Virus record (IMG/VR): IMGVR_UViG_3300045988_012363
Span: 1 to 6,152 of that record
Direction: 5' to 3' (one strand)
From: a virus
Length of the DNA: 6,152 bases
In this document: one piece after another, positions 2,444 to 4,008 of the stretch
How positions within the stretch are numbered: position 1 is the stretch's first letter
Layout of the letters: each line of letters starts with the position of its first letter
Translations under genes and position numbers: made by a program
Notes under the pieces: model-generated
What the model was told of the DNA's origin: nothing
The model's database searches: none
What the model saw: only the letters and a program-made list of their open reading frames with translations

Positions 2444-2486
2444 ATTATATCACAGAATTTTACATTTGTCAAGTTTTTATTTTTTG
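2444..2486 (-). promoter_or_regulatory. Consensus sigma70/sigmaA promoter with extended -10 and an A/T-rich UP-like tract; likely the main phage promoter
   Basis: On the minus strand the sequence reads AAAAAATAAAAAC-TTGACA (2472-2467), a 17-nt spacer ending in TGA, then TATAAT (2449-2444). Both hexamers are perfect, the spacing is optimal and a TGn extension is present. It lies at the boundary between the gene-free region and the first gene of the co-oriented gene string. Confidence 0.75.
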
Positions 2487-2587
2487 CGCAGGTCTTGCTC
2501 CTTTGTTTTGAATGGCGCTTTAGCGCCTTGCCGTGCGTAGCGTATGCGGAGCTCGGCTAATCCATTCCTTGTTAGCGCTGTGCGCGT

Positions 2588-2699
2588 TTTCAACACTTTC
2601 AACACTTTCAACAGGTTTTCCACAAAATGTTGCACAATGATTTTCGGCATTTTGACGAACTTTCAACATTTCAACAATTTTTCAACAAATCTTTCAACA
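2588..2699. repeat. Array of seven exact TTTCAACA octamers (TGTTGAAA on the gene strand), all in the same orientation, in two clusters
   Basis: Exact copies lie at 2588-2595, 2597-2604 and 2606-2613 (period 9). Four more lie at 2661-2668, 2669-2676, 2680-2687 and 2692-2699 (periods 8, 11 and 12). Degenerate copies are TTTTCCACA at 2616-2624, TTTCAACT at 2746-2753 and TTTTCCACT at 2753-2761. Confidence 0.9.
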
Positions 2700-2842
2700 G
2701 TGTTTTTTGCTTTTTATTTACGCTTTAGCGTTAAATTTTAGTACTTTTCAACTTTTCCACTACCTCTACTACTACTCCTACAACAAGTTATATATTATAC
2801 AGCGCTTGTGAGCTTGCGAACAATAGCGCTAGCGCTCTATAG

Positions 2843-2885
2843 CGCGCGTGCGCGCGTGCGCGTTTCGCGCGCGTGCGCACGCGCG
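2843..2885. repeat. GC-rich inverted repeat forming a hairpin of alternating purine-pyrimidine sequence
   Basis: The sequence is cgcgcgtgcgcgcgtgcgcg-ttt-cgcgcgcgtgcgcacgcgcg. The stem has 20 paired positions (2843-2862 with 2866-2885): 18 Watson-Crick pairs and two G-T appositions (2854/2874 and 2857/2871). The loop is 3 nt. Both arms alternate purine and pyrimidine without interruption. Confidence 0.9.
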
Positions 2886-2903
2886 ATAAAGTATATCTAC
2901 TTG

Positions 2904-2921
2904 ATAGACTGAATAGACTGA
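2904..2921. repeat. Perfect tandem duplication of the 9-mer ATAGACTGA
   Basis: The copies are at 2904-2912 and 2913-2921. They overlap the 3' end of the first copy of the decamer TACTTGATAG (2898-2907). Confidence 0.9.
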
Positions 2922-2944
2922 TACATGGTGTCTTTAGACGACAA

Positions 2945-2978
2945 TAGCCCAGTACCTTACTTGATAGGTACTGGGCTA
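2945..2978 (-). terminator. 13-bp perfect hairpin with an 8-nt loop just downstream of the VP4 stop; candidate transcription terminator and/or replication-origin hairpin
   Basis: The stem pairs tagcccagtacct (2945-2957) with aggtactgggcta (2966-2978). The loop is tacttgat (2958-2965). On the gene strand it starts 11 nt after the VP4 stop and is followed by TTGTCGTCT, which is only a weak U-tract. The terminator call is therefore tentative. Confidence 0.45.
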
Positions 2979-2988
2979 GGTGACACCG

Positions 2989-4008
2989 TTAGAGTGTCCC
3001 TTTCTTTTTCATCTGCTTCTTGATCACTCTCTCTTTTGTTTTACACTGTTCTGCAAAGTCTGTGTTTTCGTACTTTAGTCTGTTTTCTGCAATTGCTGCT
3101 GCTTGTCTGTTCTGTTTAATTTTCCACAACCTTTGTGGGTTTTCAGCTTCCATCATTTTTTCATAATAACGTGGAATTTGTGCGTGCTTGCCGTTTGTGC
3201 ATTGGATATATCCTTGCCGCCAGATCTCTGCTTTGTGCTCTTGATAATAGTGATCGCCTAAACCCGGTTTGAGGCTCATACATGCGAATGGTTTTGTTTG
3301 CCCTAGCTCGTAGTATGCGTTTGCTTTTTGACCGTCTATCTCATACATTTTTTTTGTGACGTATCCTGCAACATATCTATATGTTTCTGGCACTGCTTGC
3401 GCTATCTGTATTTGACCCATGCCCCATAGGTCTTCTAGCCATTTACTTGTAAAGTATCCGTTGTGTTGTATCTTGTATAGGTGTTCTAGATCTGTTGGTT
3501 GCCATCCATACAGTATCATGTGATAGTGCGGTCTTGCTGTCTGTTCTCCGTATTCTCCCGCTACAAAATAGCGTAATTTGCCCCCATAAGCCTTCCTGAG
3601 ACGTTTTAAGAATTTTTGAATGTCAGTATATAGCAACGTTTGGACGCTTTCAGGGCGCTTCTCTCCCGGTTTCCAGACGTATTGTACTTTTCGCATGATT
3701 TCGCCTGTGTTTATTATCATGCCCGGTACATGATCATCATCATAGGTTAATGTTATAAACCAAACTTCTTCTTTTGGATAATCTCGTGCTTCTAATTCTA
3801 TTCGTGTTGTCCAATCCTCCCTTTGTCTGATTCTACATCCGATACATTGTCCACATGGTATCAACATGACATTTTTTTTGTACATCAGGTCTTCATATTT
3901 TAGCTGTTTTCCCGCTAACTGAGAAAAGCGGGAGAGTGAGTACACCCTCCCGCTAATGTTTTTGTCGTTAGGGTTGTACAGCCTTATTAATGGCTTGTAA
4001 CAACTCAT
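2989..4008 (-). CDS. VP4: Rolling-circle replication initiation protein (VP4 / phiX174 A-like HUH endonuclease), 339 aa
   Basis: The three microvirus Rep motifs are present. They are FITLTY, the HUH motif PHYHMILYG (H-Y-H at 3520-3528), and the double-tyrosine motif YVAGYVTKK (Y212 at 3373-3375, Y216 at 3361-3363; compare phiX174 A YVAKYVNKK). There is also an N-terminal CGQCIGC cysteine cluster. Its ATG overlaps the VP2 stop as ATGA (4005-4008). Confidence 0.95.
   Translation of the reverse strand: MSCYKPLIRLYNPNDKNISGRVYSLSRFSQLAGKQLKYEDLMYKKNVMLIPCGQCIGCRIRQREDWTTRIELEARDYPKEEVWFITLTYDDDHVPGMIINTGEIMRKVQYVWKPGEKRPESVQTLLYTDIQKFLKRLRKAYGGKLRYFVAGEYGEQTARPHYHMILYGWQPTDLEHLYKIQHNGYFTSKWLEDLWGMGQIQIAQAVPETYRYVAGYVTKKMYEIDGQKANAYYELGQTKPFACMSLKPGLGDHYYQEHKAEIWRQGYIQCTNGKHAQIPRYYEKMMEAENPQRLWKIKQNRQAAAIAENRLKYENTDFAEQCKTKERVIKKQMKKKGTL

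Follow-up and report, generated by a model that had tools for sequence, protein, structure and literature searches.

A portable cassette in gut gokushoviruses that resembles a bacterial replication origin and is predicted to recruit host DnaA

Textbooks present the Microviridae as the standard example of phages that replicate by a rolling circle with an initiator of their own, DnaA playing no part. Indeed, phiX174 and other classical microviruses need no DnaA, and a requirement for a DnaA origin in such a phage is therefore not obvious. Other mobile replicons do use the host protein: at the origins of pSC101, F, RK2, R6K and P1 oriR, one to four DnaA boxes assist a replicon initiator acting on its own 17-22-bp iterons, while oriC plasmids or minichromosomes, such as the Spiroplasma and Mycoplasma vectors, are small circles with an oriC segment that replicate on host DnaA. 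The iterons of geminiviruses and circoviruses and the dso bind sites of rolling-circle plasmids co-vary with Rep and keep a constant distance to the nick hairpin. For bacterial chromosomal origins, the rules of the basal unwinding system (BUS) ask for a DnaA box with at most two mismatches, a spacer of no more than 16 nt and at least three NAN trios with the consensus 3'-GAT-5' (PMC8287927), and a DnaA-box cluster has been defined as at least three TTWTNCACA boxes with at most one mismatch and a mean spacing below 100 bp (PMC7561715).

The window analyzed here, a stretch of 6152 nt, is a complete gokushovirus genome given as the reverse complement of the coding strand. Among deposited genomes, Human gut gokushovirus KX513868 comes closest to it; there, the array region described below carries no annotation. 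Some GenBank records place a 'hypothetical protein' at the array. In this 6.15-kb microvirus, VP4 and a small ORF flank a cassette (Table 1) that matches host oriC in architecture, is conserved among related phages, and is independent of orientation, position and VP4. We propose that this cassette is probably a portable mimic of the BUS of a host oriC, which would recruit host DnaA onto the double-stranded RF.

Table 1 Features of the cassette and its surroundings in the 6152-nt window
Feature	Position	Strand	Remarks
Sigma-70 promoter, 12/12 consensus + TG extended -10	2444..2472	-	TTGACA 2472-2467, TATAAT 2449-2444
GTGCGCGT sequence, related to the 2837..2891 palindrome	2580-2587		Borders the opposite cassette end
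Whole oriC-like cassette (DnaA-box array, spacer, DnaA-trios, A/T tract)	2586..2799	+	~212 bp
Boxes 1-3: TTTTCAACA, CTTTCAACA, CTTTCAACA	2587..2613	+	9-nt period; column conservation ~90-100%
Box 4: TTTTCCACA	2616..2624	+	0 mismatches to classical DnaA-box consensus TTWTNCACA
TGTTGCACA, possible weak box, moderately conserved linker	2628..2636	+	1 mismatch to TTWTNCACA
Linker palindrome TTCGGCA-ttt-TGACGAA	2643..2659	.	Both halves fit TGNCGAA
Boxes 5-8: CTTTCAACA, ATTTCAACA, TTTTCAACA, CTTTCAACA	2660..2699	+	Spacings 8, 11, 12 nt
Trio-proximal tandem boxes TTTTCAACT + TTTTCCACT	2745..2761	+	At BUS box-pair position
Spacer ACCT	2762..2765	+	4 nt, 2/4 G/C
DnaA-trio run CTA CTA CTA CTC CTA (n=5, in phase)	2766..2780	-	3'-GAT GAT GAT GAG GAT-5' = 5'-TAG repeats on - strand
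CAACAAG, then A/T tract TTATATATTATA (2788-2799, 12 nt)	2781..2799	.	Candidate unwinding element
G/C-rich alternating purine-pyrimidine palindrome	2837..2891	.	Borders the A/T end of the cassette
Hairpin TAGCCCAGTACCT-tacttgat-AGGTACTGGGCTA + GGTGACACC	2945..2987	+	Strand-locked, separate from the cassette
VP4	2989-4008	-	
Peptidase M15, VP5-like and VP3-like genes		-	

The cassette contains seven exact copies of TTTCAACA, all on the + strand, with starts at 2588, 2597, 2606, 2661, 2669, 2680 and 2692 (span 2588-2699). Start-to-start spacings are 9, 9, 55, 8, 11 and 12 nt, the two clusters being separated by a gap of 47 nt, and three variants accompany them (TTTCCACA at 2617, TTTCAACT at 2746 and TTTCCACT at 2754). 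No copy of TTTCAACA was found beyond the array when both strands of the window were scanned, and dinucleotide-preserving shuffles gave an expectation of 0.32 copies and a maximum of 3, with seven or more in 0/200. The original prediction, made from the letters alone, of seven exact co-oriented octamers with three variants, in two clusters about 47 nt apart and far beyond chance, is confirmed by these counts. A compositional artefact, which it had named as a possible refutation, is ruled out as the source of the array, as is chance, by the shuffles together with the absence of the octamer elsewhere in the genome.

The octamers are most likely clade-specific DnaA boxes of the form (T/C)TTTC[A/C]ACA, as in the origins of Ruminococcus and Oscillospiraceae. 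The cassette holds about 11 co-oriented DnaA-type boxes, a perfect TTTTCCACA among them. In 120 genomes, classical TTWTNCACA boxes are 141-fold enriched within cassettes and run in the same orientation as the octamers, and perfect TTATCCACA was counted 13 times inside cassettes versus 0 times outside on the same strand; this enrichment of canonical boxes is independent of the motif by which the contigs were found. Over the whole genome of the window, TTWTNCACA with at most one mismatch occurs 16 times against 15.1 expected. This is chance level, so the case rests on the clade-specific box variant. The cluster of five co-oriented matches to the generic consensus (2587, 2616, 2628, 2679 and 2753) is likewise weak when taken alone.

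The elements downstream of the array follow the BUS rules. The first box, TTTTCCACT at 2753-2761, has two mismatches to TTATCCACA and one to TTWTNCACA and is followed by a 4-nt spacer; its tandem partner, TTTTCAACT at 2745-2753, for which up to four mismatches are allowed, has three to TTATCCACA and one to the clade box TTTTCAACA. Five trios, where at least three are asked for, lie at 2766-2780, opposite the strand on which the boxes are read, and an A/T-rich element, TTATATATTATA, lies downstream of them after CAACAAG. A G/C cluster between box and trios is less regular: ACCT is 2/4 G/C in the window, and in relatives the spacer is variable (0-4 nt, missing from some) and G/C-rich (CTCC, GCCC, CCCC, TTGC). 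The final box alternates between TTTCAACA and TTTCCACA among relatives, as it does in host oriCs. The trio run CTACTACTA occurs once in the window and is ~100% conserved, and the box-spacer-trio junction pattern likewise has a single instance in the window, with 0/200 shuffles containing it. The trios match the C. difficile oriC2 trio CACCTACTACTATTACTACTATGA, and the layout is the same as in oriC2, for which unwinding has been demonstrated by experiment. Past the trios, CAACAAGTT is invariant in relatives, while the A/T tract varies in sequence yet stays A/T-rich; at 12 nt it is short, and other stretches of the genome are more A/T-rich. A chromosomal oriC belongs to a bacterial chromosome and typically lies beside dnaA/dnaN. 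The cassette, which has a small phage ORF on one side and VP4 on the other, would be BUS-like in its working, yet it is no chromosomal origin.

Several other identities were considered for the region and set aside. A structured ssDNA element is not indicated, as folding was no better than for shuffled controls on either strand (z of +0.51 for the - strand and -1.60 for the + strand), and Rfam returned no credible match to a known RNA family. A protein-coding repeat was also rejected, despite ORFs at 2544-2741 (+), 2477-2650 (-) and 2520-2669 (-) that overlap the array: the 8/11/12-nt spacing of the second cluster, and an inter-cluster spacing that differs by 1-8 nt among relatives, leave no conserved reading frame. 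That the A/T tract might be a dif site for XerCD integration was dismissed, since the tract varies in relatives and its arms are unlike those of B. subtilis dif.

When 185,579 species genomes were scanned for three octamers close together, at least 120 loci were returned. Among the matches listed, 11 loci have the array in the intergenic region between dnaA and dnaN, and the identifiable dnaA-dnaN loci belong to Clostridia (Oscillospiraceae, Ruminococcus, Eubacteriales); at four of them the neighboring genes were confirmed as DnaA or DnaN by Pfam. Of the 120 bacterial loci listed, none yielded microvirus genes. In these host oriCs the octamer is interspersed with canonical TTTTCCACA and TTATCCACA boxes, and the arrays end in the order box(es), (c)ccc, CTACTACTACTA and A/T, matching window positions 2745-2799. 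The host spacer between box and trios is (c)ccc or tacc, and junctions past the trios read 'CTACTACAACAAtatatatat' (L501) and 'CTACGACTGTTAATATAT' (L176). The cassette sub-architecture 'TTTCAACA-n-TTTCAACA-GG-TTTTCCACA' comes up again twice in one Ruminococcus oriC (L143). Box logos built from 129 host and 690 phage sites cannot be told apart, with A:C ratios at the variable position of 86:14 and 88:12, respectively. It should be noted that the dense host arrays were located through the motif search itself. When Ruminococcus oriCs were retrieved via DnaA alone, the octamer was still enriched in both dnaA-flanking intergenic regions and 'CTACTACAACAA-tatatat' junctions were present, with exact octamers far sparser in the three motif-unbiased oriCs (2-4 per intergenic region).

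The DnaA of hosts with octamer-type boxes carries DHST..(Y/T) in the recognition helix, versus DHTTVIH in B. subtilis and Aquifex. As a precedent for the variant, TT(T/A)TCAACA has been put forward as a mollicute DnaA-box consensus; the review that cites this proposal also questions it. Recent capture of a sampled host oriC was rejected, as the only multi-box matches are of at most 31 nt and show no collinear homology, a pattern that fits mimicry or ancient capture.

Among phages, the cassette is both conserved and mobile, and more than 300 microvirus contigs carry it. In three gokushovirus clades whose relatives were picked by VP4 alone, at least three octamers were found in 60/66, 23/26 and 43/44 genomes, and the cassette is retained down to ~37% VP4 and ~40% VP1 identity. 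Absence from close relatives, which the original prediction had offered as a refutation, can thus be dismissed, the array being kept in essentially all of them. Two apparently array-less relatives were discarded from this comparison, one (L257) being a chimeric or concatemeric contig and the other (L265) a contig that ends inside the cassette. In 76 unique cassettes, conservation is 90-100% in the boxes and in the trio block, and the linkers and flanks are variable. The most frequent 8-mer is TTTCAACA in every VP4 clade, from at least 90% to below 43% identity, and also in motif-unbiased clade samples. The cassette is inverted in ~17% of genomes; in four of them (L240, L247, L270 and L282), exactly the window segment 2586-2797/2804 is inverted and the flanks keep their orientation. 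One clade carries the cassette in a different intergenic region, which makes two genomic positions overall. The cassette behaves as a dsDNA unit: it flips as a block, relocates and has no strand-specific fold. Where the cassette has the orientation seen in most genomes, its 5'-TAG repeats (the trio strand) are on the gene-sense strand. Tracts like the palindrome at 2837..2891 border the cassettes of relatives, inverted ones included. Arrays of TTTCAACA were also found in unrelated larger viral contigs without VP4, where the neighboring genes were uninformative except for one Lin1244_N domain; no plasmid counterpart of the cassette was found in PLSDB.

The hairpin between the cassette and VP4 behaves differently. 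With a conserved loop and co-varying stems, it is present in 122/153 loci (123 hairpins, essentially one per genome), and its orientation relative to the genes is constant even where the cassette is flipped. Counterparts were seen in Chp2, in L450 and in Ciona and Apis microviruses. It is a candidate for the rolling-circle origin of the phage itself. In the phage family of the window, this pan-gokushovirus ACTTGAT-loop hairpin is on the strand opposite to the sense of every gene, and these phages may package the antisense strand if it is the VP4 nick site. Base composition was abandoned as a clue to the packaged strand, as Chp2 and phiMH2K disagree. A phage-specific VP4 nick site at CAACAAGTT was downgraded, the same block being found at Ruminococcus oriC junctions.

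From these comparisons we consider it very probable that host DnaA binds the cassette boxes, because the same octamer is found in host origins and is identical across clades whose VP4 proteins are ~37% identical. DnaA-dependent unwinding and origin firing at the cassette are somewhat favored. In the mechanism that we propose, host DnaA-ATP would fill the ~11 co-oriented boxes on the double-stranded RF and, from the last two boxes, would polymerize along the strand with the 5'-TAG repeats. This polymerization would melt the neighboring A/T tract, which would then serve as the entry point for the host helicase-loading machinery, and the RF would be replicated or maintained like a mini-chromosome beside VP4-driven rolling-circle synthesis. 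A stronger form of the proposal, which we regard as doubtful, is that the RF of these abundant gut gokushoviruses is replicated or maintained in Ruminococcus/Oscillospiraceae as a DnaA-driven mini-chromosome in theta mode, with VP4 rolling-circle synthesis reserved for progeny ssDNA. If this were true, the phages would have a plasmid-like carrier state that needs no integrase and takes its timing from the cell cycle of the host.

Among other readings of the array, some keep DnaA as the binding protein and deny the cassette a replication start. The boxes might act as a decoy, by titration as at datA, or might put a strong promoter next to them under the influence of DnaA. With about 11 boxes in each genome, many RF copies would indeed be a large DnaA sink, a consensus promoter adjoins the cassette in several clades, and DnaA-box repeats of phage T5 are reported to have a non-origin role (bioRxiv 10.1101/866236). 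However, this reading leaves unexplained the near-invariant phased trios and the A/T tract, placed as in host modules, and it sits poorly with the promoters. The original prediction had put the array upstream of the main promoter. Its position and distance stand (116-289 nt, with transcription directed away from the cassette), but the functional link does not, since some clades have the cassette inverted or shifted with respect to promoters; in L008 and L017, comparable promoters come after the cassette. A cassette that can be inverted and, in one clade, lies in another intergenic region also argues against an operator array, which had been put forward as an option, or a UP-type role with fixed geometry. 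The promoter at 2444..2472 is context outside the cassette, and we judge a decoy or regulator unlikely.

HUH endonucleases require single-stranded DNA, and melting or bending by DnaA at the cassette might therefore aid VP4 nicking, at the ACTTGAT-loop hairpin or at the trio/A-T junction, with replication remaining purely rolling-circle. The cassette always lies in an intergenic region that also carries the conserved hairpin, and in Chp2 a pair of DnaA-type boxes lies ~70 nt away from the hairpin. Against this helper role, which seems improbable to us, cassette and hairpin keep neither a constant distance nor a constant relative orientation, the L086 clade has no such hairpin by the criteria applied, and the seemingly phage-specific 'CTACAACAAGTTA' block falls within host-oriC variation, which makes it a poor nick-site candidate.

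Other readings assign the array to a different protein or to a different strand state. It is very unlikely that the array binds another host protein, such as Spo0A or an OmpR/PhoB-type regulator, and couples the phage to a sporulation or stress signal, for which phage phi29 is a precedent. The Spo0A 0A-box consensus is TGNCGAA; TGTTGAA is one base off TGTCGAA, the 11-12-nt spacings of the second cluster would suit tandem response-regulator sites, and a strict inverted TGNCGAA pair in the linker was counted in 25/120 cassettes and 0 times outside cassettes. Yet the octamer core TGTTGAA breaks the CG of the consensus, the 0A-like palindrome is missing from most cassettes and showed no enrichment in host oriCs, and the octamer sits at BUS box positions beside the trios and, in hosts, marks the dnaA-dnaN origin, where it replaces or mixes with canonical DnaA boxes. 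Iterons for VP4 or another phage protein are extremely unlikely. Direct repeats near a candidate Rep hairpin, confined to the main intergenic region, do recall CRESS-DNA viruses and rolling-circle plasmids, but the octamer stays the same across clades with VP4 proteins 37-100% identical and so does not co-vary with this initiator, it keeps no fixed geometry to VP4 or to the strand-locked hairpin, and octamer arrays also occur in bacterial oriCs and in the larger viral contigs. Of the original suggestion of iterons for a replication initiator, an array of initiator sites is therefore retained, with host DnaA as the best-supported protein rather than one of the phage's own; VP4 and the small phage proteins, also named as possible binders, are disfavored by an octamer that fills Ruminococcus/Oscillospiraceae origins and is constant across divergent VP4 clades. 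Finally, ssDNA phages need a signal for complementary-strand priming, and the array might be such a single-strand origin acting on incoming ssDNA, for example a DnaA-dependent 'ABC primosome' site; that the trio strand is the gene-sense strand in most genomes would suit it. This is barely conceivable to us: a stable strand-specific structure was not found on either strand, the copies are all co-oriented and so are unable to pair into double-stranded boxes, and the cassette is flipped in part of the genomes while the strand-locked hairpin is not.

A putative DnaA-recruiting cassette suggests a replication strategy not described for gokushoviruses; a search of the literature found no earlier description of such an element in Microviridae, in agreement with the original remark that no equivalent was known. 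A conserved, portable mini-oriC in many human and animal gut gokushoviruses would imply a second layer of replication or persistence that depends on the host initiator. For gut gokushoviruses, of which hardly any hosts are known, the cassette yields a testable host prediction, namely Oscillospiraceae/Ruminococcus-type Clostridia, which we consider likely. If the stronger, mini-chromosome form of the proposal were true, the type of DnaA box in a phage could predict its host from sequence alone. The box variant TTTC(A/C)ACA correlates with the DHST helix and would be useful for origin prediction in uncultured Clostridia, and a natural 212-bp unit of boxes, trios and unwinding tract could be a minimal origin for tools in hard-to-transform gut anaerobes.

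Compared with known systems, the array is like Rep iterons in that a small ssDNA replicon carries short repeats in direct orientation in its main intergenic region, but it differs in having neither co-variation with VP4 nor a fixed geometry. E. coli datA and the first-step-transfer repeats of phage T5 are, like the cassette, DnaA-box clusters outside the chromosomal origin; neither is described as having an adjoining trio run and unwinding tract, and T5 is a large dsDNA phage. With pSC101, F, RK2, R6K and P1 oriR, the cassette has in common that a mobile replicon would borrow host DnaA via boxes at its origin. None of these is an ssDNA rolling-circle phage, however, and the cassette has no separate iterons, its boxes being the array, and has a complete trio/DUE module. 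The box proposed for mollicutes, TT(T/A)TCAACA, is the same variant as the phage boxes, but oriC plasmids are laboratory constructs or chromosome fragments, whereas the cassette is a natural viral element for which replication is predicted. The closest likeness is to the BUS itself, represented by B. subtilis incC (boxes #6/#7, trios and DUE) and C. difficile oriC2, with which the cassette shares the order of elements and their strands (PMC8287927, PMC6669920, PMC7561715): tandem boxes, a short, variably G/C-rich spacer, in-phase trios and an A/T tract, with further co-oriented boxes upstream. Unlike these, the cassette lies in a 6-kb ssDNA phage with its own HUH initiator, is compressed to ~212 bp, moves between two intergenic positions in both orientations, has mostly the variant box TTTCAACA and has an A/T tract of ~12 nt, while its junction is nearly identical to that of Oscillospiraceae/Ruminococcus oriCs.

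Displayed as the reverse complement of its coding strand, the window is a complete gokushovirus genome whose VP4 (Rep), VP1, VP2, peptidase M15, VP5-like and VP3-like genes are all on the minus strand; among deposited genomes, Human gut gokushovirus KX513868 is the closest. The original prediction had described seven exact, co-oriented copies of TTTCAACA with three variants, which their positions confirm: 0.32 copies are expected, seven were reached in 0/200 shuffles, and none lies elsewhere in the window, as the proposed check of octamer density showed. The consensus promoter it had cited was also recovered (12/12 consensus, TG extended -10) and is directed away from the array. A generic DnaA-box criterion by itself gave no excess over chance in the T-rich strand of the window.

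Features of the window and counterparts in other microviruses
Genome	Position	Strand	Feature
Window	2472-2444	-	promoter
Window	2575-2587		GTGCGCGT sequence, related to the palindrome at 2837-2891
Window	2588, 2597, 2606, 2661, 2669, 2680, 2692	+	exact TTTCAACA
Window	2617		variant TTTCCACA
Window	2643-2659		linker palindrome TTCGGCA-ttt-TGACGAA
Window	2745-2761		tandem boxes TTTTCAAC-TTTTCCACT, then spacer ACCT
Window	2746		variant TTTCAACT
Window	2754		variant TTTCCACT
Window	2766-2780		DnaA-trios CTA CTA CTA CTC CTA
Window	2788-2799		A/T tract TTATATATTATA, preceded by CAACAAG
Window	2837-2891		palindrome (GCGCGCGTGCGC)n
Window	2898-2925		second TACTTGATAG copy
Window	2945-2987	+	ACTTGAT-loop hairpin
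Window	2982-2998	+	terminator-like hairpin and T-run, antisense to genes, overlapping VP4 end
Window	2989-4008	-	VP4 (Rep)
Window	3120-3128	+	second perfect TTTTCCACA, within VP4 coding region, oriented as cassette
Chp2 (L499)	2820-2840		two boxes, TTTTGCACA/TGTGCAAAA
Chp2 (L499)	2908-2950		hairpin counterpart
L497	2501-2542		hairpin counterpart
L498	2501-2542		hairpin counterpart
L450	~3725		hairpin counterpart
L390	2458-2488		perfect TTATCCACA x3 (TTATCCACAgg)

Arrays of TTTCAACA also occur in some viral contigs that are not microviruses. Their spacings do not follow multiples of three, and in L082 the octamer is interspersed with TTTTCCACA/TGTGGAAAA, a pattern that pointed to a host factor. 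A bacterial scan with one genome per species returned at least 120 loci; many of those listed are trivial tandem repeats, and none is a microvirus within a bacterial contig. Among the matches listed, irregular octamer arrays occupy the dnaA-dnaN intergenic region in 11 loci (L137, L143, L148, L161, L162, L176, L192, L195, L198, L206 and L226), whose named members are Oscillospiraceae, Ruminococcus, Eubacteriales or Clostridia MAGs; DnaA or DnaN flanks were Pfam-confirmed in 4/11. Since this region makes up ~0.03% of a genome, the co-location is not due to chance. In these origins TTTCAACA is interspersed with canonical TTTTCCACA and TTATCCACA boxes, and the logo of 129 host sites (from the loci listed) cannot be told apart from that of 690 phage sites, each reading (a/n)(t/c)TTTC[A/C]ACA with an A:C ratio of 86:14 in hosts and 88:12 in phages. 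In a test that does not rely on the motif searched for, TTWTNCACA boxes of the classical type were 141-fold enriched in phage cassettes, co-oriented with the octamers, and perfect TTATCCACA occurred 13 times in cassettes and 0 times outside on that strand. The dense host arrays were found via the motif search itself; in three Ruminococcus oriCs sampled without the motif, exact octamers are enriched, with 17 copies per 4.1 kb against 3 per 15 kb, but are much sparser than in motif-found arrays and are joined by many degenerate variants. A mollicute DnaA box has been proposed as TT(T/A)TCAACA, a consensus whose validity the review citing it calls into question.

The DnaA proteins of these hosts have DHST..(Y/T) in common in the recognition helix, compared with DHTTVIH in B. 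subtilis (8btg) and Aquifex. DHST(I/V/M)(V/T)(Y/T) was seen in DnaA C-termini from the dnaA-dnaN loci other than L148 and from the bacterial loci L501-L503. As a correlation, not proof, the DHST-type helix may determine the altered box preference in hosts with TTTCAACA-type oriCs. Host DnaA very probably binds the cassette boxes, and the host is probably a member of Oscillospiraceae/Ruminococcus. Irregular (a)gtTTTCAACA arrays were also observed in viral contigs that are not microviruses and reach 77 kb (L058, L113, L072, L078/L084, L108, L069 and L082), none with dnaA or dnaN nearby; L069 has the junction box-ccc-CTACTACTA-A/T, and the 34 box copies of L082 point both ways, with TGTGGAAAA among them. 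Such arrays probably serve other mobile elements that share these hosts as DnaA-dependent origins.

Towards dnaN, all host arrays among the loci listed finish in the order box(es), (c)ccc, CTACTACTACTA..., A/T-rich DNA. The published rules for the basal unwinding system (BUS) of chromosomal origins (PMC8287927) call for a box of at most 2 mismatches with another in tandem, a spacer of ≤16 nt and ≥3 NAN trios with the consensus 3'-GAT-5', and each of these features is present at the window junction 2745-2780. The trio run parallels 5'-CACCTACTACTATTACTACTATGA-3' of C. difficile oriC2, which has been unwound experimentally. CTACTACTA occurs once in the window, and no shuffled sequence contains the box-spacer-trio junction. 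The invariant CAACAAGTT was considered as a phage-specific site and downgraded, as a comparable block is found at Ruminococcus oriC junctions: the phage junction falls within host variation, given 'CTACTACAACAAtatatat' in L501 (motif-unbiased Ruminococcus oriCs obtained via DnaA homologues) and 'CTACTACTACGACTGTTAATATAT' in L176.

Among deposited phage genomes, the intergenic region matched 48 gokushovirus records by blastn, from human, pig, monkey, dog, mink and raccoon samples. Of this region, the array (window ~2584-2810) is shared most widely and is nearly always unannotated. Pig-faeces Microviridae records (MG945233, MG945334, MG945447, MG945162, MG945136 and others) annotate a 'hypothetical protein' over the cassette, probably a spurious ORF call because spacing varies among relatives. 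An IMG/VR pattern scan for three close octamers gave at least 119 loci; among the matches listed, ~90 microvirus-sized contigs have the two-cluster architecture of the window (spacings 9, 9, (11), ~44-56, then 8, 11, 12), with strictly co-oriented octamers and none elsewhere in each genome. Three clade samples picked via VP4 protein only, blind to the motif, had ≥3 octamers in 60/66, 23/26 and 43/44 contigs, so that the array is indeed conserved in related microviruses; the exceptions were truncated, chimeric or very distant microviruses, and in the very distant L450 and L451 the element is entirely absent. The cassette is retained at only ~37-45% VP4/VP1 identity, so that the conservation of this non-coding element far exceeds that of the proteins. 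Across 76 unique cassettes, boxes and the trio/CAACAAGTT block show 90-100% conservation, the spacer and A/T tract vary in sequence while keeping their character, and the DNA around the cassette varies.

The cassette also behaves as a self-contained unit of double-stranded DNA. Exactly window 2586-2797/2804 is inverted, with flank orientation kept, in the relatives L240, L247, L270 and L282, the VP4 of L240 being 98% identical to that of the window; in total, the cassette is oriented as in the window in 119 genomes and the other way round in 24. In the L086 clade the cassette lies between VP2 and VP4, not after VP4. The G/C-rich, perfectly alternating purine-pyrimidine palindrome (GCGCGCGTGCGC)n adjoins its A/T end and the related GTGCGCGT sequence its other end; similar tracts border cassettes in relatives, inverted ones included, and could be recombination/inversion substrates, cruciform/Z-DNA formers or an unwinding-limiting clamp. 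Each half of the linker palindrome fits TGNCGAA, the Spo0A 0A-box consensus.

The hairpin has a conserved loop, (T)TACTTGAT, and co-varying stems followed by (A)GGTGA(CACC), and its orientation relative to the genes is constant in 122/122 genomes possessing it. It appears to be pan-gokushovirus. ACTTGAT reads in the sense of the genes in Chp2, in L450 and in the microviruses of Ciona and Apis, and antisense to all genes in the window's family (122/122 genomes). The loop's ACTTG/AT resembles the phiX174/pC194 nick site; should VP4 nick at the hairpin, the strand packaged in this family would be the antisense one. At 60 nt upstream of the loop copy of TACTTGATAG is the second copy, with short repeats (ACTGAATAGACTGATA) after it.

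The sequences show directly that the cassette has the architecture of host oriC unwinding modules, is conserved, and depends on neither orientation, position nor VP4; that it has a true origin/unwinding function is a reading we slightly favor. Host DnaA-ATP would load onto the co-oriented boxes of the double-stranded replicative form and extend from the two proximal boxes along the TAG-repeat strand, and the A/T tract would open for host helicase loading. The replicative form would thus be copied or maintained as a mini-chromosome, in parallel with VP4-driven rolling-circle synthesis. From established origin biology, the adjacent strong promoter, transcribing away, could aid opening through negative supercoiling behind the polymerase.

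The main rival, a DnaA sink or regulator, would also use the boxes but leaves the conserved trios and A/T tract unexplained, and we consider it unlikely; DnaA as a helper of VP4 nicking seems rather improbable. Binding of the array by another host regulator such as Spo0A is very doubtful; the strict linker-palindrome pair occurs in 25/120 cassettes, never outside the cassette, and shows no enrichment in host oriCs. Taken together, the flips and relocation, folding no better than in shuffled controls, the absence of a conserved reading frame across the cassette among relatives, the strand-locked hairpin and the VP4-independent octamer speak against VP4 iterons, a promoter-locked operator, an RNA signal or a viral-strand ssDNA signal. 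Of the suggestion of iterons for a replication initiator, the initiator-type array stands, as very probable DnaA boxes, but VP4 as their ligand is highly improbable, the octamer being unchanged across VP4 clades and the cassette flipped or moved. The inversion or relocation of the cassette in relatives argues against the suggested operator array. A single-strand origin hardly merits consideration, since neither cassette strand folds better than shuffled controls.

In the full-text literature available without subscription, no DnaA boxes or oriC-like modules were found tied to Microviridae or gokushoviruses, in line with the earlier statement that no described equivalent in Microviridae was known. 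The divergent, high-GC microvirus L390 has three intergenic boxes with 11-bp phasing and no trios, and the intergenic boxes of Chp2 lie ~70 nt from its hairpin without a trio run. These are canonical-type boxes. DnaA-box use in the family may therefore be older and wider than these gut clades, to which the complete module appears specific. Unlike the cassette, plasmid and phage origins with DnaA boxes have just one to four of them beside iterons of their own, and datA and T5-type box clusters lack the trios that it has. Being located in a phage, the cassette is not a chromosomal origin; it probably works like the chromosomal BUS/oriC2, with which sequence-level membership tests place it.
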